Positions 12,423 through 56,520 of a stretch of DNA of 64,000 bases are shown here, piece after piece. A program made the position numbers and the translations under genes. The notes below the pieces were generated by a model that searched no databases, was not told the origin of the DNA, and saw nothing but the letters and a program-made list of their open reading frames with translations. Source of the DNA: a virus; IMG/VR virus record IMGVR_UViG_3300048790_000078, positions 1 to 64,000 of that record; one strand, given 5' to 3'. Position 1 is the stretch's first letter; the number at the start of each line of letters is the position of its first letter.

Positions 12423-12423
12423 G

Positions 12424-12666
12424 TTAGGCGCCGCCTTCCTCGGTAACTTCGACTTTCGGTGCTTCGATCTGAAGCGGTTCGTCGATCTCGACGGCAGTCA
12501 GCACGCAGGGAGGATCGAGATCCTCGACATTCGTGACGCGCAGCGCGGCGAACTGCCCGTGGCACTGGCCGCAGTCCGCATGAAGGTGGTTCGGCTGGGC
12601 TGGAACCGCGACGACTTCAACCGTCGCAGTGTGACTGCATTCGAGATCGACCGTGATGCGCTTCAT
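12424..12666 (-). CDS. Small Cys/His-containing protein
   Basis: LECSH..CGQC; coupled to neighbours. Confidence 0.45.
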   Translation of the reverse strand: MKRITVDLECSHTATVEVVAVPAQPNHLHADCGQCHGQFAALRVTNVEDLDPPCVLTAVEIDEPLQIEAPKVEVTEEGGA

Positions 12667-27528: not shown

Positions 27529-29064
27529 TCAGAGCATAAAAGTGGAATTAGTGGAGATATCCTCGAATCCCGGTTGCTTGATTTCCGGTTCGTCGGAGAA
27601 GGGTTTGAAGACTCCGGAGACGGCCGTCTGGTTCTTGCGCGCGGCGGCATCGCTGTCGGCCTGCCCCTCATAGAACTTCATCAGCGCTTCAGCCGAAGAT
27701 AGATCGAAGAGCTTCGATACTGCGTACACCAGCACGTCCAGCCTGTTCGGAGATCGCCCGAGACGCTGTTTGATCTCCGGCGTGGTATCGCCCTGTTTGA
27801 CGGAGCACATCTCCTCTTCGAGCGCATAGAAGTTCCCGCAGTGAACGATCTTTGTCCCATCGTTCTGCGTGTACAGCAGGCTGACGGGCTCGGCTCGGAC
27901 TGCCTTCCCGTGCGAGGCGTTGACCATCTCGACCGGTGTGTTCGGGTTGGCATGCCGAAGGACTTCAAGGACCATCGCGCCGCCGTAGTTCTTTTCAGCG
28001 ACCACCAGATCGGCGCCCCACTTGATCCTGAGATCCTCCACCTTGCGCGCCCAGGCGGCCGGTGGCCCGTTCATTGTGCCATCTTCGAGCACGTAACCTC
28101 GATCGTCGATTCCCTTGCCAACCACGATGATGCCGACGTCGTCACCCTGCCCGATCCCTTCACCTGACGTGCCCGATGGATCGACGGCAATGATGATCCG
28201 CCGCATCGGCACCGGAAGCGATTGCGGAGTCGCCTGGTTGCCGCGGGCGGCCGAGATCGCACTCAGCGTCCATAGGGCGCCGGCGAGTTCATCCTGATCC
28301 ATCCCTTCGAGGAAGCGTAACCGCATTGCCAGCGGCATCGCGGCCAGCGACCGCATGTACTCTTCCGAGAGGTGCGGATTGTCTTTCGGGTTCATCCGCA
28401 AGCTGGCGTATAGGGACCGGTCCAATCTGCGCTCGCGTTCCATCGGGTCAAGCCCGAGATCGTACTCGACATATGACCAGTGGCTCTTGCCGACTGGGTT
28501 GAGATCGTCGTATTCCTTCTGCAGCAACCGGCCCTTTGGATTCTCCGACGTTGCCATGTCCGGATTGAAGACTTCCTGCGAAAGCCGGGTGCGCGTCTTC
28601 AGGATGGACTGGTAGGAGATCTGCGAGACTTCATTATGATGCAGCCCGACAAATTCACGGCCGAGGATCTTGTCCACGCGCTCTTTATCGTCGAGGCCGC
28701 CGATCCAGTATTCCGCTTTGTTCCAGAACTCCAGGCGCATCTCGCCGCGGGCGTTGACCTGCCGAATGTTTCCGTCAGCGGCGCTGAGGCCAGGGTAGAA
28801 GTTCGCGAGCACCTTGGGAATAGTGTCGAGCCACAAGCTGTTGACGGCATCGACCATGTGCAGCCGGAGACTTGCCTGCCGCGCGCTGGGGAAGTGAATG
28901 GCGCGGCCGATCATCTGGCGCACGATGATGGTTGTCTTCGTCGATCGCGCTCCACCCACGAGCTTGATGTACCGCTTCGTCGGGTCGCGCATCAGCCCCA
29001 GAGCTTCGTTCTGCTTTGGGGTGATCTGAAAGATCGGCGACGCCGTGAGGTTCGGAGGCGTCAC
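27529..29064 (-). CDS. terL: Terminase large subunit
   Basis: Walker A GGARSTKT, Walker B HHNE, DLNP, DNPHL, nuclease AVDP, SPNRLD. Confidence 0.9.
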   Translation of the reverse strand: MTPPNLTASPIFQITPKQNEALGLMRDPTKRYIKLVGGARSTKTTIIVRQMIGRAIHFPSARQASLRLHMVDAVNSLWLDTIPKVLANFYPGLSAADGNIRQVNARGEMRLEFWNKAEYWIGGLDDKERVDKILGREFVGLHHNEVSQISYQSILKTRTRLSQEVFNPDMATSENPKGRLLQKEYDDLNPVGKSHWSYVEYDLGLDPMERERRLDRSLYASLRMNPKDNPHLSEEYMRSLAAMPLAMRLRFLEGMDQDELAGALWTLSAISAARGNQATPQSLPVPMRRIIIAVDPSGTSGEGIGQGDDVGIIVVGKGIDDRGYVLEDGTMNGPPAAWARKVEDLRIKWGADLVVAEKNYGGAMVLEVLRHANPNTPVEMVNASHGKAVRAEPVSLLYTQNDGTKIVHCGNFYALEEEMCSVKQGDTTPEIKQRLGRSPNRLDVLVYAVSKLFDLSSAEALMKFYEGQADSDAAARKNQTAVSGVFKPFSDEPEIKQPGFEDISTNSTFML

Positions 29065-31538: not shown

Positions 31539-32183
31539 CTACCACTGCCCCTTATCGTCAGCGGGGCAAGACGCCATTTTAACGATTTGCACGTTCGTCT
31601 GGTTGATCTGCTGGTTCAGCGTCCGCGCGTCCACATTCACGCTCATCCCCTCCACGAAGCCCATCATCCGGCCGATCTGGTATTCGAGCGCACTCATCTC
31701 CTTCAGCAAGGCATTGTCCTGCCGGAGCTCGGGAACCGCGGTCTTGCCGACCATCCGCATCTCGATCACCACGAAGCCGGTTGTGATCCCCGGCAGCTTG
31801 CGCAAGTTCGGCATCTCGCCCTGTTTGGCGCCTGTCAGCCGGCGGACCATCTCGTTGGCCGGATCCGAGTAGTTCGCGATCCTGTCGTCGCGGATCTGGC
31901 AGAGCGCCTTCCACCGGTTGTACTTCTCGCGGACCTGGCCGTCCTTGTGCGCGATCGCAATCTCGGTGTTCGTGATGTCCGCTTCACCCCGAAGGCGCCG
32001 CGCGACGTCCGTCTGGAGTTCTGCAATTCTGGCAACAATTGCAGTCTTTTGTTGCAATTTCCAGGCACTTGCATGGGCAGCGTTGGCGCTGAACCCGGCA
32101 GCTATGTATGATTCTGCTGGAGTTAGCCCTTTTGCAATCCCGTTGCAAAAAAGCTCGTGACGTTGCTTTTCAAGTACAGGCAC
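31539..32183 (-). CDS. terS: Terminase small subunit
   Basis: MPVL...RHELFC.....G......YIAAGF......A.KL.....I.ARIAEL N-terminus. Confidence 0.8.
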   Translation of the reverse strand: MPVLEKQRHELFCNGIAKGLTPAESYIAAGFSANAAHASAWKLQQKTAIVARIAELQTDVARRLRGEADITNTEIAIAHKDGQVREKYNRWKALCQIRDDRIANYSDPANEMVRRLTGAKQGEMPNLRKLPGITTGFVVIEMRMVGKTAVPELRQDNALLKEMSALEYQIGRMMGFVEGMSVNVDARTLNQQINQTNVQIVKMASCPADDKGQW

Positions 32184-33473: not shown

Positions 33474-34112
33474 TCACTCCGTCATTTGTTGGCTTCGGAC
33501 AAATACCGCCGAATAATGCGTCATCTGCTGTGCCCATCCGCAGTGGTAGCAGGTCCAGTTTGAGATCCGGTACCCGCGGAGCCCCGCCAGCTTCTCCATC
33601 TGGAACCGGCATACCTCGGCATACCGCCTATGCAGGTGATCGTTACCGAAGTGGTCCACGGCGCCTGTCTTTTGCAGCGATTTAGATTCCCAGCCTGATT
33701 TCCCGCAGAGATACTGCCGCAGCCCATCGGTAACCACCATGGCGAGGATCGGCGGAAAGGCCCGCGACGACGTGAAGAAGCCTTCGAGAAGAGGATTCGG
33801 ATCACCCCATGGATCCACGTCGACGAAGTTGACCTGCAGGTGGGCCCCGGCGCCCTTTGCCACCGCGGCGACGCTGTCAGCCCGATAGACGGCCCAGCCC
33901 GGCCGCTGCTTTGCCAGCGCTTCGCACTTTTCCGGATCCTTCTCGATCACCACGCCGCTCTCCACGTCGCTGTAGCAGGCCTTCCAGATCTCTCCGAAGC
34001 CTCCGTTCGTCTCCATCACCACCGGACGCACCGGAAGCGCCCGGAGCGCGGCACGCCGCAGGTTCACTTTGAGCAGGATGGTCGCGTTGTCTTTTTTTGG
34101 CGCGGTCGGCAT
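33474..34112 (-). CDS. Putative class I SAM-dependent methyltransferase-like protein
   Basis: VMETNGGFGE, VIEKD, D.DPWG.P, VTDG motifs. Confidence 0.55.
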   Translation of the reverse strand: MPTAPKKDNATILLKVNLRRAALRALPVRPVVMETNGGFGEIWKACYSDVESGVVIEKDPEKCEALAKQRPGWAVYRADSVAAVAKGAGAHLQVNFVDVDPWGDPNPLLEGFFTSSRAFPPILAMVVTDGLRQYLCGKSGWESKSLQKTGAVDHFGNDHLHRRYAEVCRFQMEKLAGLRGYRISNWTCYHCGWAQQMTHYSAVFVRSQQMTE

Positions 34113-34760
34113 TACTGGAGGCTGATCCCGCCAACCTCGGCGTTCTTCGCTCGGATGTAGGCCTGGCAGATCTCCATCACCGCCGCCGCCCTGGTCGACT
34201 GCCCGGCCAACCTGATGGCTTCCTCGAACGCTGCCAGCGATTGCATGTACACCACCACATGCAGCATTTTATCCCGATCCGCGTTCCTCGAAGCATGCCC
34301 CGGGCCGGCGGCCGGGCCCCCAGCCGCGCCAGCGATCATCTCCCCGAGCTCCTCTGGGTCGAAGCCGGTTAACGACAAATCAAAGCCGATTTCACTCAGA
34401 TCCGCCATTTCGCCGGCGAGCAGGCCGACGTCGAACTCTGCTTCGGAGTGGGATCGGTTTTCCATTATCCGAAGCCCACGGATCTTCTCCGGCGACAGCC
34501 CGCGCGCGACGTGCACCGGCACGGTCTTCAGCCCCAGCTTGATCGAAGCCAGCCTTCTGACGTGCCCGATGACTATAACCCCGCTTTCCTCGACAACGAT
34601 CGGCTGCACGAACCCGTAGGCCTGAATGCTGGCGGCCACCTTGTCGATTGCCGATTGCGGTATCACCCGCGCATTTTTCTTGTACGGGCGTTAGACGTTC
34701 GATCTCCCAGATCTCGATGGACAGATCGGCGGATGGGGACGGCGGGCGCGCGGCTGACAT
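34112..34760 (-). CDS. ParB/Srx N-terminal domain protein, frameshifted near 34686
   Basis: Removing one C gives IERLTPYKKNAR..AIDKVAASI..YGFVQPI..IVIGH.R. Confidence 0.75.
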
Positions 34761-34949
34761 TCGACTTCCAGTATGTCCTGGTGATCATAGACGGCGCAAA
34801 CCTGGAGGGTTCCAAAGTCTTCCATTGGGCGGGTTTTCCAATGGCGCGATGGCGGGTTACCAAAGCAGGCCAGTTTCTACAAGCATAGGAGCCAATCCGT
34901 AGACGTACCGGCTCAAACCCACGCCAATTCACCTGTCGGACGGCTCCAA

Positions 34950-35232
34950 ACCTATCAAAACAAAGGGTTTACTGGAGTCCAAAATAAGGCTCTCAAGTCA
35001 CTCATTCTAAAGGGTTTAGAGATTTCCACAGTTTCGGCTAGTTTTCCACATTTCGGGCGGAATTGTGCACAGGAAATCCACAGTCAGCAGGCTGAAAATC
35101 GCTTCTAAGTAACTCAAAACAAAGCGTTTAACAAAACTTGTGGATAACTCAGAATTCTACAGCCAGGGCGGTTTTCATCCTCGGTTTCAGGGTATTCTAT
35201 AAGAGTAGTAAGTAATACAAAACAAACGGGTT
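34950..35232. promoter_or_regulatory. AT-rich origin-like region with DnaA-box-like and IHF-like repeats
   Basis: TGTGGATAA at 35139-47; near matches at 35022, 35042, 35063, 35074; four CAAAACAAAG(G/C)GTTTA-like repeats. Confidence 0.55.
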
Positions 35233-35302
35233 ACGACACGCGGCGCGGCTTTTTTTGCGCGTCGGGACGGCCAGGACGGCGTCTAGTGACTCCTCGGCAA
35301 TT

Positions 35303-35315
35303 TGATCTTTCACAA
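35303..35315 (+). promoter_or_regulatory. boxA-like antitermination element
   Basis: TGATCTTTCACAA resembles rrn/nut boxA; second copy AGATATTTGACAACTAAATA at 35681-35700. Confidence 0.45.
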
Positions 35316-35327
35316 TTCGACAACCAA

Positions 35328-36105
35328 AGCGAGACTAGGCGCATACGCGTCCTGTGGTCGCGGAAACCATTTCAACGGGTTTTAGATGTTGACGGGGAGA
35401 ATATCTCACTAACCTATCGTCATAAGTCCTGGCAGTCTCCAGGCTGGCGAGCAGGGCCCTGGATTAGAGAACACCCAAACCAACAGAATCTCAGTCCCAA
35501 GACTTTGCGGACGTCCTGAGAGATTGTTTCCTGCCCTGGGAAGTGACCAACTGTAAAGAGCGTATTTGAGCCTAACAAGGGCGTATATAGGGTAGTTTCC
35601 CAAGCGGGAGATATCGGGCGGATTCTTCGTTCGGTCCTACAGACTATAGCCTGGCACGCGTCGCGCGGGTTTGTCGAGACAGATATTTGACAACTAAATA
35701 GAGCTCTGAAATCATGGACTTAGAACGTATGAGTGCTTTTTGTCGCGGTTTGACAGAATGACAAGGCGGCGACTCCATGAGGCGAGCAAACCTTCAAATC
35801 AGCGTATAGGCGAGAGCCTTTTGATTCCGACGAAATGATGTATCCCTCGCGGGTGTTTTCGGTTATGTTGCGAGCATTGAGAGACAGGAAAAGTTTACTC
35901 CCAATAGCCAATAGCCGGAGCCTTCATAGTTGCGTCAACAGTAATCAGCGCGAGATTTGACGGCCGGTTGAGAGCCGGTCGAAATGTTCCAGGGCGGACG
36001 CATAAGGCGAAAGGCATCGCAGCGTCCAAACTGGAAAATGATCCGAGAAATTGCTACCTCCCCGTGGTTCGGATCGTAAACGTCAGCCGCGCGGCTTGAC
36101 GGCCA
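35328..36105 (+). ncRNA. Candidate long structured leader or ncRNA(s)
   Basis: No convincing ORF; dense run of hairpins, some with GNRA-like loops. Confidence 0.4.
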
Positions 36106-36134
36106 AATGCAAACCCTCCCGAAAGGCAAAATCC

Positions 36135-36263
36135 ATGAAACGAAATATCGCAATAGCTATGCAAGCCCGTGCTGCCAAAATCATCCGCCTGAATCAGATG
36201 CGGCGCAATTCCCGTGTAATCTCCAAGCATTCGGTCGTGCCAGCGACCCACGGAAAAGCGTAG
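36135..36263 (+). CDS. Small basic peptide (first early ORF)
   Basis: GAAAGG RBS; its stop lies within CGTAGACG. Confidence 0.4.
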   Translation: MKRNIAIAMQARAAKIIRLNQMRRNSRVISKHSVVPATHGKA

Positions 36264-36398
36264 ACGCGCCATGCGGGCCGGATGGCCGGTCCGCTTTCAA
36301 ATGTCCATCAAAACACCAGCTTCCCCGCAGCGATGGACGGGCAACGGAGCGTAGACGTTCCGGCAATGGTGAACCTTCCCGAAAGTGAACAAACGAAC

Positions 36399-36869
36399 AT
36401 GAAAACGACTGACCTGCAGTTCAAGAATGAAACCTCAGACAAGACCTATACCGTCGCGATCGACGGCCTGGAGGTGCTCTACATCTTCGGCAAGCGCGAA
36501 GGAACGAAGACGACCATGTTCCAGATCGCGGATGACAAGGCGGAAGCCCGCCAGCTCCATGACGATTGCGTCAAAGGCCTGCTGAAGAAAGGCTACACGC
36601 TGGCGGCCGGTTCGGTGGCGCCGAAGACTCCGACCGATATCGCGGAGTTCCGGCGGGCCGCGGCTCTGAAAGCATGGGCGACCATGCGCGCCAACGGCAT
36701 CAAGCCGGCGGAAGCGAAAGTGAAACGCTCGGAACCCATGACGGCGGAGGAACGCTCGGACGCAGCGAAGCGCGCCTGGATCACCATTCGGGCGAATCGC
36801 GAAGCGGCTGCCAAAGCGGTCAAGGCCGAGGCGCGCGCGGCGAAGAAGCTCGCGAAGGTCGCGGCGTAG
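36399..36869 (+). CDS. WGR-like domain protein with basic (K/R)AWxT(M/I)RAN repeats
   Basis: SDK.Y.V.......FGK......A.......LKKGY; two AAxxAWxTxRAN repeats. Confidence 0.65.
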   Translation: MKTTDLQFKNETSDKTYTVAIDGLEVLYIFGKREGTKTTMFQIADDKAEARQLHDDCVKGLLKKGYTLAAGSVAPKTPTDIAEFRRAAALKAWATMRANGIKPAEAKVKRSEPMTAEERSDAAKRAWITIRANREAAAKAVKAEARAAKKLAKVAA

Positions 36870-36889
36870 ACGTTTCGATCCTGTAGTGC

Positions 36890-36918
36890 CCGGGCGGTGA
36901 GTTTACCCGCCCGGTTTT
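36890..36918 (+). terminator. Intrinsic terminator
   Basis: CCGGGCGG-N9-CCGCCCGG-TTTT. Confidence 0.65.
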
Positions 36919-37004
36919 CCAATGCCTGCAAAATCGCAGCCTTCCCGTGGCGCAGGTGATCTGTTACCAATGCGAAACCTTCCGAAAGTGAGATCCATCC
37001 ATCC

Positions 37005-37214
37005 ATGACCGCTTCAATGAAATCCCGCGCGGATCGCGCGACCATCGACCTGATTCGCATGTCGGCGAGCAAGCTCGTAGACGACACGAAAATTCATCTG
37101 GTGACACCGCTTCGCCCGCCCATGAAGCCGGCGACGGCCACCATCGGCGAATGCCTGGCGTTTGCCGGCCGCCTGGGGCAGTTCTCCAGCGTCACGATTC
37201 AGGCGGTGCGCTGA
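37005..37214 (+). CDS. Hypothetical early protein
   Basis: In-operon; preceded by a CCGAAAG motif. Confidence 0.45.
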   Translation: MTASMKSRADRATIDLIRMSASKLVDDTKIHLVTPLRPPMKPATATIGECLAFAGRLGQFSSVTIQAVR

Positions 37215-37215
37215 C

Positions 37216-37581
37216 ATGGCGATTTCCTCCTTCCGCTCCGAAAGCATTATCGAACTCCTGCAGTATGAGGGGATCAAGAACGAACGGGACTTCGCCAACT
37301 GGTGCGCGGAGCGCCGGCAAAAAGGCGAGTCCCGCTTCTCGACTCTGAAGCGGATCTTCGGCGAGGTCAACGCTCACCGGATCATGCGCGTGGTCGAGGT
37401 CGCAAGCTGGAAGCTCGTAGACGTTCGCAAGAAGCGCGCGGCGATCAAGCGTACTGCCAGAACCATAGCGGCCACGCGGCGCGACCTGAAGGGCATCCGG
37501 CGCCAACTGATTCCGGCCGATGAGCGGTTGGATCTCAACCTGGTCGATTACTACTACACCCGCGAAATGGGCGGAGCGTAG
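37216..37581 (+). CDS. Hypothetical basic early protein
   Basis: RBS AGGCGG; in-operon. Confidence 0.5.
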   Translation: MAISSFRSESIIELLQYEGIKNERDFANWCAERRQKGESRFSTLKRIFGEVNAHRIMRVVEVASWKLVDVRKKRAAIKRTARTIAATRRDLKGIRRQLIPADERLDLNLVDYYYTREMGGA

Positions 37582-37586
37582 ACGTC

Positions 37587-37928
37587 ATGGCGATGCGTCC
37601 TTCGATCCGGCGGGAACTCAACAAAGCCCGCGAGCTGCTGCGCTTCATGCTGCGCGGCCAGCGCTGCTACTTCTGTCATGGCCCGCTCATCGAACCGGAG
37701 AAAGTGGTCCGGGACGGTGACGGGACGGCCGAACCGCTGGCCTTGGCGGTAACGATCCATCACAAATCGGGTGACCACTCAGATAACAGCGCGGGCAATA
37801 CCGTGCTGAGTCACTTCTCATGCCACAAAAGCCACCATGCAAAGCACATGGTCCGGGCCGGTGGCAAGTTCCACAAGCAGGGCGCGGCTGTTCTCGTAGA
37901 CGCGCCAAAACGGAGGAAAGCAGCATGA
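37587..37928 (+). CDS. Small HNH-motif protein
   Basis: CYFC..TIHH.....DN...N....H..CH..HH. Confidence 0.7.
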   Translation: MAMRPSIRRELNKARELLRFMLRGQRCYFCHGPLIEPEKVVRDGDGTAEPLALAVTIHHKSGDHSDNSAGNTVLSHFSCHKSHHAKHMVRAGGKFHKQGAAVLVDAPKRRKAA

Positions 37929-38281
37929 CGAAACCATGGGAATGCCCGCTCTGCTTCTGCGAAGGGAAGCACGCCGATAGGTGTGAGGCTGGACACCTGA
38001 CGAAACCTCCGGCCGCACCGACCGTTCACATGAACGGTACAGGCTGGAAGGATCTTTACAGTCAGATGGAGGATGCCGCACAGGCGCTCAGCGCAGCAAT
38101 CGTTACGATGCGCGCAGCCTGCCCGAATGGCCGGGACTACTATGTACAGTCCCCCGGCGCCACGGAGATCGCGCAGAACGAACACTGGGAACGCATCCGT
38201 AAAATCATGGCCGTCAAAACTGAGCTCGAACTGGTATGGATGGCGATCTCGGATCAGGAACCGAAACGGAGGACAACGTAG
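37925..38281 (+). CDS. Hypothetical early protein
   Basis: PTVHMNGT...L...........PNGRDYY. Confidence 0.55.
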   Translation: MTKPWECPLCFCEGKHADRCEAGHLTKPPAAPTVHMNGTGWKDLYSQMEDAAQALSAAIVTMRAACPNGRDYYVQSPGATEIAQNEHWERIRKIMAVKTELELVWMAISDQEPKRRTT

Positions 38282-38285
38282 ACGC

Positions 38286-38477
38286 ATGAACTTCACGCTC
38301 ACCCTGAACCTGAATCCCGGCACCACGTATGCCGAAATCCAGCGGCAAGTGTTCATCGCAGCAAGCAAGCTGCCGGTGGATTCGAGCAAGCCGGGCGGCA
38401 AAGAAGAGATCCACTTCTTCTGGCCGGGCCGCGACGGAGCCGAAGACGTATCCGGCCAGTGGGTAATCGACAAGTGA
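38286..38477 (+). CDS. Hypothetical early protein
   Basis: RBS GGAGG; in-operon. Confidence 0.5.
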   Translation: MNFTLTLNLNPGTTYAEIQRQVFIAASKLPVDSSKPGGKEEIHFFWPGRDGAEDVSGQWVIDK

Positions 38478-38902
38478 AAACCCCGCGCATCATCTCTATT
38501 CGCCAGCCTTGGGCATGGGCGATAACCTCGGGCGATATCCCTGCGGACCTGCGGAAGGATTTGGAGAACCGCAACTGGAAAACGAACTACCGCGGGCCGC
38601 TTCTGGTCCATGCCAGCCTGAAACCGGATCGGCGTATCCCCGAAGTGGTATCGTTTCTCGAAATGGCAACGGGCCTTGAACTGCCGGCGCCCGCGGATCT
38701 CCCGCTCGGCGGCATCGTTGGGCGGACCAATCTCGTAGACGTTGTGAGCAAATCGAAGTCGCACTGGTTCTTTGGCCGGTACGGCTTCGTTCTGCGCGAC
38801 TCGAAACCTCTGCCGTTCATCCCCTGCAAAGGGCAGCTCGGCATCTATTACCCCGACAGCGAACTGCTGGTCGCACTTCGCAAGAAAGGAATCATCCGAT
38901 GA
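38474..38902 (+). CDS. ASCH domain protein
   Basis: ISIRQPWAW.I..G..K.LENRNW.T.YRG.LLVHAS; KGQLG. Confidence 0.9.
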   Translation: MKTPRIISIRQPWAWAITSGDIPADLRKDLENRNWKTNYRGPLLVHASLKPDRRIPEVVSFLEMATGLELPAPADLPLGGIVGRTNLVDVVSKSKSHWFFGRYGFVLRDSKPLPFIPCKGQLGIYYPDSELLVALRKKGIIR

Positions 38903-39123
38903 CATCGCAAATGCCGGCGCTTCCAACCGATCTGCCGCTGTTCGCTGAGCCGGAATGTCCCTGCGGCTTCGCGCACGCCACACTGAAGCGCCTCATGCTG
39001 CGCGAGCGCCGCACGCTGGCCGAATGCCAGGCCAGTAACCATCCGGCAGCCGAAGACATGGCCGCTGGCGTAGACGCCCGCTGCGCGAAGCTGCAATGGC
39101 ATCTGGACGGTGGCTGCGCATGA
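38899..39123 (+). CDS. Hypothetical protein
   Basis: ATGA coupling. Confidence 0.4.
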   Translation: MTSQMPALPTDLPLFAEPECPCGFAHATLKRLMLRERRTLAECQASNHPAAEDMAAGVDARCAKLQWHLDGGCA

Positions 39124-39406
39124 GCTACCCTGTCCATCCTGCGAGCTGACGGCCCCGCTGAGGACTGGCGGGATCGTTGGGCACGTTCTGGAGTGCTTCG
39201 GATGCGGGCGCAAGGTTTGCGTCCCGGTCGGCACGCCGGTATTCGATCTGGGAACGCAGCGGATCGTAGACGCTGCGCCTCCCGTCGAGCATACCGACTT
39301 CAGCTATCTCCGCTTCACCTGGCGGAAAGGCAAGGGCACTGTACGGCGCATGGTGTCCGGTAAAGATCGCGCCGCTCAACTCGATTACCTTCTGGAGGCT
39401 GCATGA
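39110..39406 (+). CDS. Zinc-ribbon protein
   Basis: CPSC..CFGC. Confidence 0.45.
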   Translation: MAAHELPCPSCELTAPLRTGGIVGHVLECFGCGRKVCVPVGTPVFDLGTQRIVDAAPPVEHTDFSYLRFTWRKGKGTVRRMVSGKDRAAQLDYLLEAA

Positions 39407-39563
39407 ACTCGTTACCGATCTGGCGCATCTTTAACTACCTCGCGAAAACATGGTACGACCTGCCGACCGCGCGGATGGATGAATTCGACGGCTGGTATCC
39501 TCCGGCCATAAGCGCCGTCTGGAGCATGGCCAACGCTCAGGAACTCGAAAGACGGGCAACCTC

Positions 39564-39944
39564 ATGAACCGCGCCATCGTTCCCGAACCCATCCGCCAGG
39601 TGCTCGACTCGTTCCGCCACCTAGCAAGCAATCCGCCCCTGTATCGGGCCAGCGTAGACGCGCTCAACTTCGCCGTGATGGAGATCGCGGCCGAGGTCGG
39701 GCCGTGTCCATCGTGCGGCGCGGACAGCGGGGTGAAACCGAACCGCTTCCCGCTGAAGGTCGAATCCGAACGCGGCTCTGAATACTGCGCCGTGTGCGGT
39801 GAGCCGGCGCGGGAGTTTCCGGTTCCGGTCCCTGTCGGCATGCCTTCGGACTTTGACCCGGAAGACTACCGCATCCGCCACGCGGAAGCCCGCGCCTACT
39901 TCTGCGGACTCGGCGAATCCCCCATGGAGCGCGACCGCCGATGA
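39564..39944 (+). CDS. Zinc-ribbon protein
   Basis: CPSC..CAVC. Confidence 0.45.
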   Translation: MNRAIVPEPIRQVLDSFRHLASNPPLYRASVDALNFAVMEIAAEVGPCPSCGADSGVKPNRFPLKVESERGSEYCAVCGEPAREFPVPVPVGMPSDFDPEDYRIRHAEARAYFCGLGESPMERDRR

Positions 39945-40406
39945 ACGCCATCGGCCGCGATTTCCTCGTCGCAATCGTCTTGATCGCCTTCGGTATCTGC
40001 ATCCTCGCCAAAGGCAAACTGTAACCCGTCAACCGAAAGGACAAACGAAATGCTCGCACTTCTAATGTCGATCCTGCTTCCGCTGCTTCCGCCAATCGGG
40101 CCGCCCTCGCCGATCGATCCCGGTCACGGCTTGCACGCCATCGGGCCTGCGCGGCCATGCGTCAACTGTCGGCACCTGCGCTAACGGACATGGAAAGCCC
40201 AACACTGTCTGCCCGCGTGGTAGTCGTCACGCCCCTGCATCCGTACTGGGGCGAAACCTGCTACATCGTCCGAAGCCGTAAAAAACCGGACTGCTTTCTC
40301 TGCGAGGTCATCGGGCAACCGAAATGCCGCGCATGGTTCGCAGAGTACGACCTGATGGACGAACGCAATTACAACGATCTTGCCGACCGGCAATAAAAGG
40401 AGAACC

Positions 40407-41906
40407 ATGCCATCCACCCTGAACATCGCAAATTACGCCGATGCGGGCTTTCCCGCAGTGGCAATCGCAACCGCCGACGAAGACAGATCCATCGCCCACT
40501 GTCTCTCGCAACTGAACAGGCCGAACGCCTGGCGCATCGCGGCGTCCGGCGGCCTGCTCGACGCCCGCACCGGCCGGGCCGTAGACGAAAAGGGCAACTA
40601 CACCACGGCCCTGCTGAAAATGCGCACGCTGAAGCAGAACGAAGCCCCGCAGTGCGTCCTGTTCATGCTGGACTACCAGCATGTCATCCGCAACGCGGCG
40701 GCGTACCGGGCGCTCCGGGACACCATGACAACCTGCAAAGCGCTCGGGGCAATGATCGTGCTCGTGTCTCCGGCATGGCAACTGCCGGCGGAACTGGAAC
40801 ACGATATCCCGGTCGTGAACGACGCGCTGCCATCGCGGGAAGAACTGAACGCATCGCTCACGATCTGCGCAAACGGCGCGGGCGCAGTGGTCGATGACGC
40901 AACCCGCACGGCCATCCTCGACGCCGCTTCCGGCCTGACCCTGGGCGAAGCGGAAGGCGCGATCGCACTCAGCTTCAACGGCACCAGCTTCGATCCCGGA
41001 CTGGTCACCGAAGAGAAGATGAAGCTGGTCCGGCAGTCCGGTTACCTCGAAGTCTCCGCACCGGCGAACATCGCGGACCTGGGCGGGCTCGGCGGGTTCC
41101 GCAGCTACATCGAACAGGAAGTCGTTCCCGTGCTGCATGAACCGGACCTGAGAGTTCGCGGCGTGTTGCTGGTCGGAATTCCTGGCACGGGAAAGTCGCT
41201 TGCGGCCCGCGTCATGTCGGCGATGCTCAACCGCCCTATTCTCCGATGCGATATCGGGTCTCTCCAGGGGTCTCTGGTCGGCGAATCTGAACGCAAAATG
41301 GCCGCGATGTTCAAGCTGGCCGAAGCCGTCGCACCTATCACGTTATGGTTTGACGAGCTTGAGAAGGCAGTCGGCGGCTATGCGTCATCGGCCAATACCG
41401 ATGGCGGCGTGAAGCTCGGGATGGTCGGCATGCTGCTTACCTTCCTGCAAGAACACCGAAGCGACATTATCGTAGTCGCGACGGTCAACGACTACCAGAA
41501 ACTCCCCGCCGAACTGACACGCGCAGGCCGCTTCGATGAACGGTTCTTCGTGAACCTGCCATCGTGGGCGGAGCGGGTCGAGATCGCCGCAGTCCATCTC
41601 CGCAAATACGGAATCGCTGGCGGGACATGCGCGGAGCGCGCGGCGGACCTCAGCTCTGAATGGACGGGCGCGGAGATCGAGCAATTGGTCCGCTCGGCTG
41701 CCCGGCGCACGCGGCGCGCCATCACACCGGAAGCTCTTGAAGCTTGCGCTCCAGACATTCGCCCGATCTCCAAAGTCCGAGGGCCGGAGATCGCAGCCCT
41801 TCGCGAATGGGGCACGGCGAACCTTCGCCTGGCAAACACGGTGGAAGCAACGCAGCCGGTAGCGTCGGGCCGGAAGATTGGTGCGCGCGTCGCAAAGGCA
41901 AGCTGA
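40407..41906 (+). CDS. Ycf46-like AAA+ ATPase
   Basis: Degenerate N-terminal AAA domain; GIPGTGKS, LWFDELEK, LTRAGRFDE.FFV.LP. Confidence 0.85.
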   Translation: MPSTLNIANYADAGFPAVAIATADEDRSIAHCLSQLNRPNAWRIAASGGLLDARTGRAVDEKGNYTTALLKMRTLKQNEAPQCVLFMLDYQHVIRNAAAYRALRDTMTTCKALGAMIVLVSPAWQLPAELEHDIPVVNDALPSREELNASLTICANGAGAVVDDATRTAILDAASGLTLGEAEGAIALSFNGTSFDPGLVTEEKMKLVRQSGYLEVSAPANIADLGGLGGFRSYIEQEVVPVLHEPDLRVRGVLLVGIPGTGKSLAARVMSAMLNRPILRCDIGSLQGSLVGESERKMAAMFKLAEAVAPITLWFDELEKAVGGYASSANTDGGVKLGMVGMLLTFLQEHRSDIIVVATVNDYQKLPAELTRAGRFDERFFVNLPSWAERVEIAAVHLRKYGIAGGTCAERAADLSSEWTGAEIEQLVRSAARRTRRAITPEALEACAPDIRPISKVRGPEIAALREWGTANLRLANTVEATQPVASGRKIGARVAKAS

Positions 41907-42226
41907 TGATTTGCGACTTCTGTTCGGAACCTCAGCCTGCAATCGCCTTCGAATATCCCTGCCGGGACTTCGTAGCGCTGGACCCGGATGAAAACCATCT
42001 GGGCTTGGGGCTTGGAATGAATGGGTCGTGGCTGGCCTGTTCGTCCTGCTCGGAACTGATCGAGCGCGGCATGCTGTCCGAACTGGCAACCCGCCAGCTT
42101 GCCGCCCGCGATGACCTGCCCGAAGATCTCGACTTCCAATGCGAGATCATCGGCCTGCTGGTGCAAACCTTCATGCGGTTCCAGTCTCTTCGCATGGGAC
42201 CGCGCCGCGAACTTCAACCCGCATAA
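41906..42226 (+). CDS. Zinc-finger protein
   Basis: CDFCS..WLAC..C..LI. Confidence 0.55.
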   Translation: MICDFCSEPQPAIAFEYPCRDFVALDPDENHLGLGLGMNGSWLACSSCSELIERGMLSELATRQLAARDDLPEDLDFQCEIIGLLVQTFMRFQSLRMGPRRELQPA

Positions 42227-42251
42227 TCGAAACCGAAAGGAAACCTTCACC

Positions 42252-43235
42252 ATGAGCACAATTAACGAACGGGCCATGCTCGTTACCCTGAACATCAGCA
42301 TGTGGACTGCGGCGGTCGGAGATTCCGAAGCCGCGAAAGAAGCCATGCGCGCAATCGGCGCGGATGAGAAATTCGAATCGGGCTCCGAAACCGGACGCCT
42401 GACGAAGTTCCTCATCGATCCGAAAGCGCTCGCACCTGGCAATAAGCTGGCGGGCGCGGCGCGCAAACAGCACAAGAAACTGACGTCGCCGTACTCTGAC
42501 GACAGCACGCGCATCATCGCAGGCGCGGGCTACCGGAAATACATGGACGGCATGGCGGAAGCCGAGCGGGACTTCTGGAACTGGTACCAGCACACGTTCA
42601 AGCCGGCGTACCCGGGACTGGTGGCCAAAGCGCGGACCACGCGCAAAGGCGACTTCCGGCTGAGCGAGTATCCCGATGCGCACCTGATCGATATCGACCG
42701 TGGGGAATGGCGGGACAGGACGCCATCGACCAAGCTCGATCGCAAGTTCGGATTCGCAGTCACCCCGGCGCCGGTCCCTGAAGCGAATCACTTCTCGAAC
42801 CTGATCGGAGTCAGCGCGGCGGACATGGCTCTGATTCAGCAGTCGGCCATGAACGACGCCAACGCCCGCATCGAGCGCGCGGTGAACGACGTGTGGCAGC
42901 GGCTTCTGGTAGTGGTCGAAGCCATGGTGGAACGGCTCACCGTGTTCGGTACGCCGCTCGTAGACGAAAACGGACAGGAAACTGGCAAACGGGCTTTCTT
43001 CCTCGATACGCTCGTGACCAACATCACCGGGCTTCTCGATCTGGTCCCGATCCTGAACGTGACGGCGGATCCGGAGATCACGGCGACGGCGCGGGAGATC
43101 GAGCAGCGCCTGACGCAATACAGCCCGCAGGTGCTCAGGAGCTCGCCGCAGATCCGCACTGACGTACTCAGGTCGGCAACTCAGATCATGAGCTCTATCC
43201 GCGGCACTCGCCGGATCGTTGCGAGGGCGGCGTAA
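42252..43235 (+). CDS. DUF3150-like helical protein
   Basis: AMLV.L.IS.W..K.LI..T.P.......YP...YP..LN.T.DP pattern; adjacent to the AAA gene. Confidence 0.55.
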   Translation: MSTINERAMLVTLNISMWTAAVGDSEAAKEAMRAIGADEKFESGSETGRLTKFLIDPKALAPGNKLAGAARKQHKKLTSPYSDDSTRIIAGAGYRKYMDGMAEAERDFWNWYQHTFKPAYPGLVAKARTTRKGDFRLSEYPDAHLIDIDRGEWRDRTPSTKLDRKFGFAVTPAPVPEANHFSNLIGVSAADMALIQQSAMNDANARIERAVNDVWQRLLVVVEAMVERLTVFGTPLVDENGQETGKRAFFLDTLVTNITGLLDLVPILNVTADPEITATAREIEQRLTQYSPQVLRSSPQIRTDVLRSATQIMSSIRGTRRIVARAA

Positions 43236-43474
43236 TGGCGGCAATCGCAAAGGTGCGCAGCGGGGAACTGCGCACCGTGTACGACGATCGGTGGGCCGGC
43301 ATCCTGTCGGCCATCGGCAAAGTCACCATCGAACGCGCGTCGGATGTCGAGTACGACCACGGCGCGGGTGAATGGGTCGCAACGCATCACGCCACGGGCG
43401 TAGTCATAGCGCGTGGCGCAAACCGCAGCGAAGTTATCGCCGCCGAAGTTCGGTGGCTCGAAGAGAGGATCTGA
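43235..43474 (+). CDS. Conserved small protein (I.RAS.VE motif)
   Basis: G....VY.D.......G...IERASDVE......W..........R.E...AEV.WL. Confidence 0.6.
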   Translation: MAAIAKVRSGELRTVYDDRWAGILSAIGKVTIERASDVEYDHGAGEWVATHHATGVVIARGANRSEVIAAEVRWLEERI

Positions 43475-44513: not shown

Positions 44514-45062
44514 ATGGAAACGACTCTGTACTACAGGGACGAAGAGAACAATTCCGACAAGTTCTACCGTGCCCGTCTCGATTTGATAGCCGCGACCGTC
44601 ACTTTCACTTGGGGGCGGCGCGGCACGGTCGGACAATCGAAAACGGAGACGTTCGGTGGGGCCGCATGGAGGGCGGAGGAAGCCTACCGTTCAAAGCTGG
44701 CAGAGAAGCGGGCGAAGGGCTACCAGGAAGACTACCGCGACGTTTCCGGTGCCCGGCGGTGCTGCATCACCGGCTGCACCGTAACGGCTGAATCTCCAAG
44801 CGCCTATTGCAGCCGTCATCGTTCCGCTGCCGGGATTTCTCCGCCCAATCCAGTACCTTTTCATCGCCCGACTGGATCCCCGCCGCCGTCATTCGATCCG
44901 CCTCAGGTCCGCTCCAATTACCGCGTTCCTGCTCGGCCACTGCAACGAACGGCAGTTCCTGAACCACCCACTCCCGAACCCGCGCCGATCATGCTGTTTG
45001 GCGGTCGGCGCATCATCAAAGCAAACAGGTCACTGCAAAAGAAAGAGGACACGAACCCATGA
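44514..45062 (+). CDS. WGR domain protein with Pro-rich tail
   Basis: SDKFY........V.F.WGRRGT.GQ........K..EK.AKGY. Confidence 0.85.
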   Translation: METTLYYRDEENNSDKFYRARLDLIAATVTFTWGRRGTVGQSKTETFGGAAWRAEEAYRSKLAEKRAKGYQEDYRDVSGARRCCITGCTVTAESPSAYCSRHRSAAGISPPNPVPFHRPTGSPPPSFDPPQVRSNYRVPARPLQRTAVPEPPTPEPAPIMLFGGRRIIKANRSLQKKEDTNP

Positions 45063-46357
45063 CAACCACGACACCGATCAAATTCCTCCGCCTTGAAGCC
45101 TTCAGCGCTTCGGGAAGCAAGTTCTACTCCATCGAAATCAACGAAGACCCGGACTGGGTCGAGAAGACAGGCATCGCCACTCAGCGATTCACCGTGGACT
45201 TCAGCTACGGCGCAGTCGGCGGCTCGATCAAGAGCGGCACGAAGACTCCTAGGCCGGTCGCTCTCGACAAGGCCGAAGCCATCATGGACAAGCTGCGGAT
45301 GGAGAAGCAGAACGGCGAGAGCCACTATCATTTCGTCGAAGAGCGCAACGCTGGAGTTCCGGCCTTCGCTCATCCCAGCCTCGACTGCCCGCCGGCCGCC
45401 GCATCGCGCTTCCCCGATTTGGCTGAACGCAAGTATGCCAACTACCAGATGAACAAAGCCGCGTTCGGTGCGATAGGGATTGACGCTCCGCCGAAACCGC
45501 TTCCGGCCTGCATCCCGCCGCGACTGCTCAACGACGTAGACCACGACGCCATCCTGAACCTGACCAAGCTCGATAACTGGTGGGTCCAGATCAAGCACGA
45601 CGGAGACCGGGTGCAATTGCACTGGGACCACGAAACGCAGTCCATCGTCCTATACTCCGGCCGGTCGGCAAAGACCAGGGCATGCCCGGCGGCCATCGCG
45701 GAGGCCTGCGCTGGCATCACCGATGAATCCTTCGTCCTTGACGGCGAGCTCGTCGGCGAAACGCTCTGGGTCTTCGATCTCCTGAAGTCTCGCTCCAAGG
45801 TCCACACGTTCGACCTGATCGCGGCCGAGGCGTCGTACAAGGACCGCTACGCACTGCTCATCCGGTCACTGGCAAGCTGGTCCCGGCAATCTCCCCGCTT
45901 CGCTGCCGGTGCTATCCGGCTGGTGATCGCGGCGCAAACCTACGAAGAGAAGGCCGAACTAATCCTGAAGGCGAAAGAGGAGCACGCCGAAGGCGTCGTG
46001 TTCGTAAATAACCGGGCTCCATACCGCGCCGGGCGCCCGAACCGCGGCGGGGACAATCTCCGCTGGAAGTTCATCGCATCCGGCTCTTTCATCGTCCACT
46101 CGCACAACATGGACAAGGGGAAGATGTCGATCGACGTCGCGCTCTATGACGGCACCGTAATCGGCACCTGTTCTGTGATCGGCAAGGAGGTTCCTGCAAT
46201 CGGTGCGATCTGCGAAATCGCCTACCTTTACTGCCTTGAAAAGCTGGTGCAGGCCCGGCTGAAAGGCGTCCGCACCGACGTTCCACGCATCGCCTGTAAC
46301 CGCCGCCAGTTGAAGTTTCGGGACGGGATCGACCCGTCGAAAGGACGTGCGCGATGA
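45059..46357 (+). CDS. WGR-fused ATP-dependent DNA ligase
   Basis: N-terminal WGR-like domain; ligase motifs KHDGDR, LDGEL, FDLL, EGVV, WK; OB-fold C-terminus. Confidence 0.85.
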   Translation: MTTTTPIKFLRLEAFSASGSKFYSIEINEDPDWVEKTGIATQRFTVDFSYGAVGGSIKSGTKTPRPVALDKAEAIMDKLRMEKQNGESHYHFVEERNAGVPAFAHPSLDCPPAAASRFPDLAERKYANYQMNKAAFGAIGIDAPPKPLPACIPPRLLNDVDHDAILNLTKLDNWWVQIKHDGDRVQLHWDHETQSIVLYSGRSAKTRACPAAIAEACAGITDESFVLDGELVGETLWVFDLLKSRSKVHTFDLIAAEASYKDRYALLIRSLASWSRQSPRFAAGAIRLVIAAQTYEEKAELILKAKEEHAEGVVFVNNRAPYRAGRPNRGGDNLRWKFIASGSFIVHSHNMDKGKMSIDVALYDGTVIGTCSVIGKEVPAIGAICEIAYLYCLEKLVQARLKGVRTDVPRIACNRRQLKFRDGIDPSKGRAR

Positions 46358-51147: not shown

Positions 51148-51459
51148 ATGAACGACGAAAGCGAAGTCTTCACCGAGCAACTGCAGGCCGCCCGGATCGC
51201 GCAGATGGCGGACTGGGTCCATGTTCTGCCGCGCGTCCCTGCCAGCGTCACAGGAATCGAAATGCTGGTCACCTACGATGACGCCGGGCAGATCAAAGTC
51301 AGCGTCGGCTTGGACCGGCGGGACGAATACCTGCACGCTGGCCTGCAAGACGAACCGGCGCCGCCGAAACCGCGAACGTACTGGATCGCCTCAGCGACCA
51401 TGCTGGGCGCTGTCGTTCTCGGCACCGTTATCGGATTCTGGCTGGAACAGGTTTTGTAA
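51148..51459 (+). CDS. Hypothetical protein with C-terminal TM helix
   Basis: WIASATMLGAVVLGTVIGFWL. Confidence 0.45.
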   Translation: MNDESEVFTEQLQAARIAQMADWVHVLPRVPASVTGIEMLVTYDDAGQIKVSVGLDRRDEYLHAGLQDEPAPPKPRTYWIASATMLGAVVLGTVIGFWLEQVL

Positions 51460-51460
51460 C

Positions 51461-52282
51461 ATGGCCAAATCCGTCCATCCACCCGCTCCGCTCACCAGCC
51501 TGGCAAAACTCATTGAGTCCGTCAGCTACCGGCGGCACAACCATGAAGTGTTTTCGGACTTCGTTGAGATGTCCGCGATCGCCATCAGCAATGCCGTGGA
51601 CCTCGGCCAGCGCGAGAAGCGCGAAGCCGACTACATGCGCATCGTCAAGAAGTACGAACCGCAGGAGATCGAGAAGTTTCCGGAGATGCTGGCCTCTCTG
51701 GTCACTGCGCTCGACGTTCACGAGGACGGCCTGTCGGACGTGCTCGGCAAGACCTATCACGATCTGGAGCTTCACAACAAATGGGTCGGGCAATACTTCA
51801 CCCCGTTAGAGATCTGCCGCATGATAGCGAAGATGACCATCGGCGACAACGGGCCCACGCTTCCCGAATGCGGTTACCTGACCGTCATGGAGCCAGCGGC
51901 GGGCAGCGGCGCCATGGTCCTTGCCTTCGCAGCGGAGATGAAGGCGGCGGGCCTCAACTACCAGACCCAGCTTCACGTCACCGCCGTCGACGTCGATCTG
52001 AAGTGCTGCGCAATGACCTATATTCAACTCTCTCTATTGCATATCCCGGCCGTGATCGTCCACGGCAATTCGCTCAGCCTGGAAGAATGGAGTCGGTGGT
52101 ACACGCCGGCTCACATCCTCAATCGGTGGGATTATAAGCTCCGCCGTAAGCGCGAGACTGACCCTCTAGCTACACTCCTGCCGAACGATGAAGGCATTGC
52201 GCCGAAATCGTTCAGCCTGCAGGAGGAACCGACAATCACGCTTCCCGTGGCTGACAAGCGCGGGCAGTTCTCACTGTTTTGA
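51461..52282 (+). CDS. N6-adenine DNA methylase-like protein (no NPPY motif seen)
   Basis: VF.DF.EM.A, DVLG..Y, GQYFTP, EPAAGSG.M, HGNSL. Confidence 0.75.
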   Translation: MAKSVHPPAPLTSLAKLIESVSYRRHNHEVFSDFVEMSAIAISNAVDLGQREKREADYMRIVKKYEPQEIEKFPEMLASLVTALDVHEDGLSDVLGKTYHDLELHNKWVGQYFTPLEICRMIAKMTIGDNGPTLPECGYLTVMEPAAGSGAMVLAFAAEMKAAGLNYQTQLHVTAVDVDLKCCAMTYIQLSLLHIPAVIVHGNSLSLEEWSRWYTPAHILNRWDYKLRRKRETDPLATLLPNDEGIAPKSFSLQEEPTITLPVADKRGQFSLF

Positions 52283-54819: not shown

Positions 54820-55679
54820 AGGACTGCACGCCTCACGCCGACCCAATGGAGCTTTGGCGCAAAGGCGTTCCCTTGCGCGAGATTCCGATCTGCATCACCA
54901 CGCCGATCTGCCAGCGGTGCCAGCGTTGCATCGTTCATTGCCTTTGTCCGCCGCCTGCCGAACGCGCGACCACTGACGAATGGAAGCGCAACGGCAGAGG
55001 CAATCTGGTGCTCAAGTCATGAAGGCCGTGGTCACGAAGCGCGGGCGAGGACAGCGCGGCGGCTGCACGAAGCTCGACGACCCGAGCAGGATGCCGTGGC
55101 CGGCGGATTACTTCGAGACCCGGCCACCATCCTGCGGCAGCTCCCTCGACGGATTGGGACCGCCGCCGGAACCGATTCCCCAGCGCAGACCACGAACACG
55201 GAAAGGACGATCTCTCAATGGCGATGAGCCCATGCAAATGCGGTAAGAACCGATGGGAATACCGGCTCGACGAAACCGACTACCGAATCCACGCGACATG
55301 CAAAGCATGCAAACGAGTGGTTTCATTCCTCAGCAAGAAGGGCAAGAAACTCGCCTCCGGCTGGGTTCCGCCGCCGCTGACCAAAGGCGTTCACGCCCAC
55401 GACTACAAAGCAATCGAACACGGCCCGGGCCCGGACGCTACCGGTGACGAGCTCTGGCCACCATGGATTCCGTTCAGCGATCGCGTTGGAGTTCCTGCTC
55501 AATGACAGGCCGGACACTACGCGATCATCTGAATCTGGTTCCTGACTCATGGCTCGATCTTGAGGTGGAACTGTCGGTCGCCTCAGTGGAACGCCCGCTG
55601 CAGCACGTCCAGCTTCACGAAGAGTTCGACGAAAGCCAACCATTCGGCACCGTCATTTCGACGCGCCGGGTGCTTCAGC

Positions 55680-56520
55680 TTACGGACGTTTGACCAGCGG
55701 TATAACCTGGCTGGCCAACAGATACGGCGCGTTCTCGTCGAACCCATGCGCCCGCATCCACGCGACCCGCTGCCCGACTTCGAAGGTTACGACAAGGTAG
55801 TAGTTGCCATCGAGCGCTGCCGAACTGCGGTCCTTTGCGACTGCTTCGGAACTCCGCTCTGAACGGGCTCGCCGTTGCGATCTCCTGCAACTGGTCAATG
55901 ACCGGCTGCGCGGCGGCCTGTTCCTGCGCGAAGATCCCCGCGATCTCCGGCAACCGGCCAAACTCGATCTCCATGTCGATCCGCGTCATCCCCGCCTCGG
56001 CCAAGTCCAGCGACCCATCGGCAATCATGGCGAGGAACGGGTCTTTATCGAACTGGCCTTGTGACTGACGATTGTTGAGCTGGACGTTCATCTCCCGCTC
56101 GGTCTTCTCGTCGACGTCGATCGCCATGACCCCGACGATGTAGGACTGGCTCCCTTCGAGCTCATCGAGGATCGACAATCTCTGATGACCGCCTACGACT
56201 AGGCCGCTGCGCCTGTTCCATGTGATCGGCGTGACGCAGCCAACCGTCTCCAGCTTCTTCTTGAGCAAGCCACGCGCGTATGAGCTGATGCGGCGCGGGT
56301 TCCACGGGGCTCCTTGAATTTGATCCCTGCGGATTTCCATATAGACGCCGCTCTGGTGCTCGGTGCGCGACAGGACGACTTCCGGCTTGGGCGGCTTCGG
56401 CGCTTTGACATTGCGCTCCTTGCGCGAAGCATTCGGGTTTGGTGGCGCCTTCTCGCGCTTCTCCCGTACTTTCTTCTCGGCCCGCTCCGGCCTGACGTTC
56501 GGATTTCGTTCAGCCACCAA
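55680..56520 (-). CDS. ParB/Srx-like protein 2, probable frameshift at about 55830-55880
   Basis: I.GAPWNPR.I, ITWN..SG.VVGGHQRL, LNN...QG.FD; the alternative frame encodes YYLVVTF..WM..HGF like the paralogue's C-terminus. Confidence 0.75.

Follow-up and report, generated by a model that had tools for sequence, protein, structure and literature searches.

The octamer CGTAGACG is a selected, strictly oriented, cis-acting word that overrides codon choice and even protein sequence in the early genes of an uncultured phage. It is exact, restricted to the early block, evenly spaced and close to saturating the sites that can hold it. The phage is represented by a linear IMG/VR record of 86,259 bp (IMGVR_UViG_3300048790_000078), which comes from peat metagenomes and has an estimated completeness of 76%; positions 1 to 64,000 of this record are the stretch of DNA that was analysed (hereafter, the window). 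An earlier note on the window, made from the sequence alone, had described the word as an overprinted array at the start of the early operon. Here, we report the distribution of the word, the evidence that its nucleotide sequence is selected, and the mechanisms by which it may be read.

Results

An exact word on one strand of the early block

The + strand carries 15 exact copies of CGTAGACG and the − strand carries none, both in the 64-kb window and in the whole record. The earlier claim of 15 same-strand copies found only at the start of the early operon thus extends to all 86,259 bp, in which the reversed control word scores 0/3. Every copy falls within 34898–42966, a span of about 9% of the record, for which (span/genome)^14 is 3.9e-15. 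Dinucleotide shuffles of the 64 kb yielded 1.69 ± 1.12 copies on both strands together, with a maximum of 4, and a Markov-3 background predicts 0.22 copies per 10 kb per strand (p about 5e-21). When all 6- to 9-mers were scanned without bias in 10-kb intervals of the genome, CGTAGACG and its sub-words were the sole strong outliers.

The word is demanded in full. All GTAGAC hexamers of the region (15/15) have the C and G flanks, just four one-mismatch copies occur on the + strand in 9 kb, which is no excess, and the positions flanking the word show no conservation among the 15 copies. Avoidance of the word outside the array was not significant (0 seen versus 1.9 expected, P 0.16). The non-coding flanks contain near-copies at 34691, 34786 and 36075 (CGTTAGACG, with one inserted T, CATAGACG and CGTAAACG, respectively), which may be decayed copies or chance.

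The copies, all on the + strand, are located as follows.

Copy 1: 34898..34905 (+), non-coding, about 50 bp to the left of the iteron/DnaA-box region, probably outside the + strand transcript
Copy 2: 36259..36266 (+), early-operon leader, 4 nt before the ATG at 36270
Copy 3: 36350..36357 (+), leader, 42 nt before the ATG at 36399; Ser-Val-Asp-Val if the gene starts at 36282
Copy 4: 36865..36872 (+), TAG stop of the first early gene (WGR-like protein)
Copy 5: 37076..37083 (+), gene 37005–37214, as CTC-GTA-GAC-GAC
Copy 6: 37416..37423 (+), gene 37216–37581, as CTC-GTA-GAC-GTT
Copy 7: 37577..37584 (+), TAG stop of gene 37216–37581, between GGAG and the ATG at 37587 (HNH-like gene)
Copy 8: 37895..37902 (+), HNH-like gene, as CTC-GTA-GAC-GCG, 23 nt before the ATG at 37925
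Copy 9: 38277..38284 (+), TAG stop of gene 37925–38281, between GGAGG and the ATG at 38286
Copy 10: 38734..38741 (+), ASCH-domain gene, in Leu-Val-Asp-Val
Copy 11: 39069..39076 (+), gene 38899–39123
Copy 12: 39265..39272 (+), gene 39110–39406
Copy 13: 39653..39660 (+), gene 39564–39944
Copy 14: 40580..40587 (+), AAA+ ATPase gene, codon 67
Copy 15: 42959..42966 (+), gene 42099–43235

The start of the first early gene may be at 36399 or 36282; the G+C content at third codon positions (GC3) is 0.60 before 36399 and 0.80 after it. Depending on this start, 5 or 6 of the 15 copies are non-coding, and the nine in-gene GTA-GAC copies counted earlier remain nine or become ten. The earlier note had also assigned the TAG stop of an open reading frame to five copies. 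This assignment stands for 36867, 37579 and 38279, which close the genes 36399/36282–36869, 37216–37581 and 37925–38281, but not for the other two: the TAG at 36261 closes merely a doubtful open reading frame (GC3 0.56) and that at 36352 closes none of at least 40 amino acids. The TAG at 34900 closes a non-coding open reading frame (GC3 0.50). As had been noticed, density falls with distance, with 12 copies in 36259–39653 and then one each at 40580 and 42959.

Selection acts on the nucleotide word

All in-gene copies read xxC-GTA-GAC-Gxx. In the genes of the region, 10 of 12 Val-Asp pairs are spelled GTA-GAC and all ten of these make the full word, whereas elsewhere only 3 of 71 are so spelled and none makes it (Fisher 7e-9). 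Against the 10 in-gene copies observed, 0.31 were expected when synonymous codons were resampled from genome usage and 1.0 under synonymous permutation within each gene; the maximum in 1000 trials was 3–4. The enrichment therefore survives the codon-aware null that the earlier note had named as its test (0.3 to 1.0 expected versus 9 or 10). With the word set aside, GTA usage in the region equals the genome average.

The protein sequences are affected as well. The full octamer is compatible with the neighbouring residues at 11 of 12 Val-Asp pairs in the region versus 17 of 71 elsewhere (Fisher 1.3e-5), and Val-Asp itself is seen 10 times in the early block versus 3.8 expected, compared with 73 versus 70.6 in the rest of the genome. 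Individual copies differ in this respect. The Leu-Val-Asp-Val of the ASCH protein is conserved among homologues, indicating that copy 10 arose by synonymous spelling; at copy 14, in the AAA+ ATPase, homologues mostly share the Asp, whereas the Val varies. The only other open frame for the word needs Arg-Arg-Arg, which is absent from the genes of the region, and the GTA-GAC frame lock follows from this lack of a usable alternative. Since availability explains the frame, the frame lock is no evidence that the word is read by the ribosome or at translation generally.

The hexamer GTCGAC occurs 28 times in the record and not at all in 34.5–43.5 kb, where about 3 copies are expected; likewise, CGTCGACG has 7 copies in the record and none in the array region. 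Both absences probably arise because the Val-Asp codons are occupied by the word. The GTCGAC gap is what could lend colour to the view that there is no signal, and that the array reflects codon bias, avoidance of this SalI/AccI-type site, a sequencing artefact or chance. The probability of this view is negligible. Avoidance alone would scatter the Val-Asp spellings, so that the gap is a consequence and not a cause; it explains neither the concentration on GTA-GAC with fixed flanks nor the non-coding copies, and the codon-aware nulls fall far below the observed number. The A of the word is real, because three copies are working stop codons directly before the start of the next gene, and an independent peat DNA study has the word at 39265, 40580 and 42959. 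The earlier suggestion of a nucleotide-level signal overprinted on coding sequence is thus upheld by the codon-aware null and by the strict orientation.

Spacing and layout

In the dense part of the array (36259–39653), the gaps between the 12 copies range from 91 to 515 bp, and their coefficient of variation is 0.42, whereas copies placed at random would give 0.93 (P 0.002). A copy is present in nine of the 11 early genes (P 0.025), and the two large genes past the dense part have one copy each; one usable Val-Asp in the AAA+ ATPase is left unused. For five of 14 copies, a start follows within 45 nt (binomial 0.009), and two (copies 7 and 9) separate a Shine-Dalgarno sequence from the ATG that it serves in the next gene. 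Placement follows cost, i.e., the stop codons and Val-Asp pairs at hand, and not a fixed position within the gene, at about one copy per cistron or per 300 bp.

Genome context of the array

All copies are co-oriented with one operon, and the minus-strand operons have none on either strand. The features on which the following discussion draws are listed below.

27529–29064 (−): TerL
31539–32183 (−): terminase small-subunit-like (TerS-like) gene
34947..35233: origin-like region between the divergent operons, with four 25-nt iterons and, at 35025–35147, four DnaA-box cores
35687..35715 (+): best sigma-70-like promoter match (TTGACA, 17 nt, TG-AATCAT), a consensus match only

Head and packaging genes run leftwards on the − strand from about 34.7 kb, and a 1.6-kb region of lower G+C content without a convincing gene separates the packaging and early operons. 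The origin-like region is indeed preceded by one copy, as had been claimed. One of its DnaA-box cores is a perfect TTATCCACA on the − strand. A metatranscriptome contig at 35477–35858 (382 nt, 2 differences), the deepest of those matching, spans the best promoter match and contains no convincing gene; its predicted fold is no better than that of shuffles on either strand, and it could be a leader, a small RNA or carried-over DNA.

The + strand operon begins at about 36.3 kb with eleven tightly packed small genes that are almost without database relatives and include an HNH-like protein, an ASCH-domain protein and several Cys-rich proteins. Replication-type genes come next (an AAA+ ATPase, a WGR protein adjoining an ATP-dependent DNA ligase, a clamp-loader-like and an N6-methylase-like protein), and the array stops where the small early genes give way to them. 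WGR-type proteins are encoded at 36399–36869 and 44514–46357. A clear Pfam match to WGR was obtained for the protein directly upstream of the ligase, and the first early protein combines a weak WGR-like N-terminal domain with two copies of an AA-x-K/R-AW-x-T-x-RAN motif.

In the 86,259-bp record, with its estimated completeness of 76%, we found no tyrosine or serine integrase, no sigma-70 region 2, no RegB (PF10715) and no repressor. Rfam and tRNA scans gave no match.

Strains, relatives and candidate hosts

In the DNA run of another peat study, near-identical short contigs keep CGTAGACG at 39265, 40580 and 42959. A peat metatranscriptome contains near-identical assembled contigs at 38725–38916, 39977–40189 and 43121–43327. 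Beyond these, only distant relatives were retrieved. For TerL and the AAA+ ATPase, identity is at most 37% to IMG/VR relatives and at most 38% to isolated phages; the best hits of a metagenome scan reach 47–54% on 2.4-kb contigs, and the best hit of a genome scan, in a metagenome-assembled genome (MAG), reaches 50%. The closest homologues, on ENA contigs, have 75% (ATPase) and 72% (ASCH) identity. By these sequence comparisons, the phage lineage is isolated and its retrieved relatives are all distant. The array was absent from the distant relatives retrieved by the IMG/VR, isolated-phage, metagenome and genome searches.

A scan of IMG/VR for two copies 60–90 bp apart returned at least 118 loci, and among the matches listed none had more than 4 copies; loci with up to 4 copies were rejected as chance antisense matches in high-GC genomes. 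None of four candidate host-type genomes (Bryobacterales, Terriglobia and Abditibacterium MAGs) was enriched in the word, which was 2 to 5 times rarer than the reversed control in three of them and about equal to it in the fourth. In 1.37 Mb of bacterial loci, it occurred at about chance level. A full-text literature search returned no paper discussing CGTAGACG in phages.

Discussion

A sequence-specific reader of the word must exist, because selection overrode codon choice and protein sequence to place an exact, oriented octamer. The evidence requires that this reader be sensitive to orientation and demand all eight letters, and that its effect increase as copies become more numerous and more evenly distributed over the early block. 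We tentatively propose, as a possibility and well short of a conclusion, that the copies of CGTAGACG are oriented DNA recognition sites for a probably phage-encoded protein that acts on the whole early operon. We infer a protein reader, encoded by the phage, whose target is DNA and not RNA and whose effect is on transcription. Under this proposal, a single sequence-specific protein would recognise the word on DNA at copies placed about every 300 bp, roughly one to each small early gene, in positions where the coding sequence accommodates them at little cost. Its most likely effect would be to control transcription through the early genes, and the bound protein might block or silence co-directional RNA polymerase after the early phase. 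Oriented asymmetric repressor sites halt elongation in one orientation only (PMC9283540), and the array may be stoperator-like in its working without being a stoperator.

Reading of DNA is favoured over reading of RNA because copy 34898 lies outside the likely transcript and because no signal of RNA structure or accessibility was found. This copy is non-coding, adjoins the origin-like region and is located about 800 bp upstream of the best promoter match. No hairpin or other RNA structure is shared around the copies, and predicted accessibility is the same as at control positions (p 0.58). An exposed seed complementary to the word in a minus-strand leader was also considered and rejected, as the predicted fold lacks significance and has the anti-word paired. 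Inspection of the contexts by eye revealed no fixed −10/−35 partner, no −35 of the extracytoplasmic function (ECF) type and no G at −10 of the pause consensus. Two candidates for a DNA-binding or DNA-cutting reader are encoded in or beside the array.

34112..34666 (−): protein with a ParB N-terminal domain (PF02195, E 1.4e-6), first gene of the divergent operon
37587..37928 (+): small HNH-like endonuclease inside the array (phrog_7545, E 2e-4), with a CxxC...HH...N...H pattern

Several observations weigh against the proposal that the copies are oriented sites for a DNA-binding regulator. An exact 8-bp word with unconserved flanks and few one-mismatch copies suits the specificity of an enzyme or of base pairing more than that of an operator. 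Most copies lie in genes, not at promoters or junctions, and the non-coding 1.35 kb of 34906–36258, the cheapest place for DNA sites, holds none. The record, at its estimated completeness, yielded no repressor, sigma factor or integrase. In a near-identical strain, an A-to-G change at 39072 gives the synonymous codon GTG, and the word at 39069 is lost (one contig, depth 2).

The word could instead be read as CGUAGACG in the early polycistronic mRNA, by a sequence-specific endoribonuclease or RNA-binding protein that inactivates or processes each cistron; we regard this explanation as a close rival, only slightly less probable than our proposal. It would account for the location of 14 of the 15 copies on the sense strand of one operon, for their even spacing at about one per cistron, and for the end of the array at the transition from small early genes to replication genes, while the demand for an exact match suits specificity of a ribonuclease (RNase)-like or base-pairing kind. 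The array also encodes a candidate reader, the ASCH-domain protein (38459..38902, + strand), and one member of the RNA-associated ASCH fold has been reported to have ribonuclease activity on single-stranded RNA (PMC5615036). The two copies between a Shine-Dalgarno sequence and an ATG, and the five of 14 no more than 45 nt upstream of a start, also speak for it, but this nearness is largely to be expected in a tightly packed operon where the TAG of the word is used as a stop. The GTA-GAC frame lock is explained by availability, as the genes of the region lack Arg-Arg-Arg. Moreover, copy 34898 is probably not in the + strand transcript, and a stray copy would occur there with a probability of about 0.04; accessibility matches that of control positions, no hairpin is shared, and no RegB homologue was found in the record. 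We know of no bacterial or phage RNase with 8-nt single-strand specificity, so this mode of reading would be without known precedent.

Nick sites are a less probable explanation, and an unlikely one: a phage nickase would cut one strand at each word in packaged DNA, and the nicks would be sealed after entry, as in phages of the tf/LUZ24, phiKMV and T5 type. The sequence signature is that of phage tf, here with 15 exact copies on one strand, none of them outside the early arm. Two HNH-like endonuclease genes are present, one within the array and another at 61229–61648, although neither shows evidence of site specificity. The ATP-dependent DNA ligase encoded by the same operon adjoins a WGR-domain protein, and the first early protein has a WGR-like domain; the WGR domains of PARP enzymes sense DNA breaks. 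However, a ligase is common in large lytic phages, where it serves replication, and the role of such nicks in known phages is itself a puzzle. The density is about five times that of tf (one copy per 300 bp) with all copies in 9% of the genome, whereas known nick sites are genome-wide. Very unlikely, in our view, is a polar octamer for a DNA motor (Chi/KOPS/SRS-like), which would tame a host helicase-nuclease entering from the DNA end or steer a translocase or packaging motor. The word has eight letters, is exact and depends on orientation, and its usable sites are near saturation, as if more were better. The array starts about 2.7 kb from the TerS-like gene, with the origin-like region between them, so the packaging start or first-ejected end could be near. 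Against this, although the evidence is weak, the word is not enriched in the four candidate host-type genomes and is at about chance level in the bacterial loci. It also contains TAG and bears no likeness to the known Chi words, which are G-rich. The probability that remains falls to some mechanism outside those considered here.

The array can be placed, as a variant, among the oriented short-site arrays known from phage genomes. The earlier note had compared it with stoperators, the asymmetric and somewhat degenerate 13-mers of Cluster A mycobacteriophages that serve an immunity repressor of the L5 gp71 type; these are distributed genome-wide in short intergenic spaces of temperate phages with a known repressor (PMC9283540, PMC6550527). 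The analogy is apt in that many copies of one asymmetric word are oriented with the transcription of one operon and overlap gene ends and stop codons, but it does not extend to membership of that class. A stoperator is a 13-bp site for a two-domain monomeric repressor, whereas here 8 bp are conserved and the flanks are not. Stoperators occupy promoters and short intergenic spaces, whereas 9 or 10 of the 15 copies lie in coding sequence. Finally, stoperators belong to temperate phages with a cognate repressor, whereas this array is confined to 8 kb of an apparently lytic phage in whose record no integrase or repressor was found.

The nick sites of Pseudomonas phage tf are similar in sequence pattern. 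In tf, 14 near-exact 9-mer sites lie on one strand, 11 of them in the early half of the genome; one-mismatch copies are scarce, and related phages have different words (PMC3517423). Sites of the tf/LUZ24-like phages read 5'-TACT/RTGMC-3', and phiKMV-like phages and T5 are likewise nicked (PMC3517423). At the level of sequence, the array shares with them a near-exact word on one strand (15/0, with few one-mismatch copies), present far above chance, early, in genes and private to a lineage. It differs in its confinement to 9% of the genome at one copy per 300 bp, as the tf sites span 80% of the genome at about one per 1.5–3 kb (PMC3517423).

Other systems share fewer properties with the array. 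RegB of phage T4 cuts GGAG in early mRNAs, a 4-nt word within Shine-Dalgarno sequences, and acts in early shut-off. The array resembles RegB sites as a short sense-strand word of early messages with some copies in translation-initiation regions; in contrast, one copy lies outside the operon, and the phage-encoded RegB-family endoribonuclease that such sites call for had no homologue in the record. Chi, KOPS and SRS are exact, orientation-dependent octamers as well and likewise effective in numbers, but they are over-represented throughout the host genome, unlike CGTAGACG in the candidate hosts tested. The parS sites of ParB systems are palindromes of about 16 bp bound by a ParB with a helix-turn-helix motif and a CTPase, whereas the present word is asymmetric and 8 bp long and the neighbouring protein at 34112–34666 matches merely part of ParB_N. 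Arrays of GTTTAAAC have been linked to a gene for an SprT-like zinc protein in the same genome, and PF10263 had no match in the record. An uncultured 113-kb IMG/VR phage carries GCACACGG 38 times in forward and 4 times in reverse orientation, and 37 of these copies fall within a 3-kb stretch. This too is an exact octamer that is packed, nearly on one strand, into early genes; the word is different and the density much higher. Kinship between the two phages was considered and rejected, as neither TerL nor the ATPase is common to both.

There is a substantial chance, though one short of even, that the array represents an undescribed class: a cis-code in which a private, strand-polar octamer occurs about once per early cistron, at the cost of rare codons and altered residues, and is read by a dedicated phage factor that switches, cuts or marks the early block. 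Other uncultured phages would then follow the same logic with other words. Apart from a few model phages, little is understood of how large lytic phages that lack an RNA polymerase of their own mark and shut down their early genes. Discovery of the reader would open a way into early-gene control, or into the site-specific nicking of phage DNA, which has been a puzzle for 50 years. It could also furnish an 8-bp recognition module that is compact and orthogonal. A few small proteins and a single oligonucleotide would suffice for a direct test.

Additional observations

One-strand words were also encountered in distant relatives. In an IMG/VR phage with a distantly related ATPase (L021), GTGGCGTT has 11 intergenic sites on one strand between 2790 and 20729; several share the longer context tcGGTGGCGTTAnaag, and two sites are followed by the palindrome TGGAAACGTTTCCA. 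This set looks like a phage-specific set of promoters. In another IMG/VR relative, with 37% identity in the ATPase (L009), CGGCGGAT is distributed 7/0 between the strands at 5844–12604 around the ATPase gene, which was too weak to be accepted as an analogous array. Strong one-strand k-mers in three further relatives (L073, L097 and L044) proved to be tandem repeats and not analogous arrays.

Two observations concern other genes of the phage. Three ParB_N/Srx-like genes are present, at 34112–34666 and 55675–57226 of the window and at 69336–70289 of the record, and two of them resemble ParB-methyltransferase families. Together with a PAPS-reductase-like gene and the N6-methylase-like gene at 51221–52282, they may constitute a DNA-modification module. 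A DnaB-like helicase of 889 amino acids is encoded on the − strand from 62197 to the end of the window at 64000, and the gene extends to 64866 of the record. The match to its family falls into two parts (residues 12–389 and 813–868) around about 420 unmatched residues, suggesting that the helicase carries an inserted element such as an intein.

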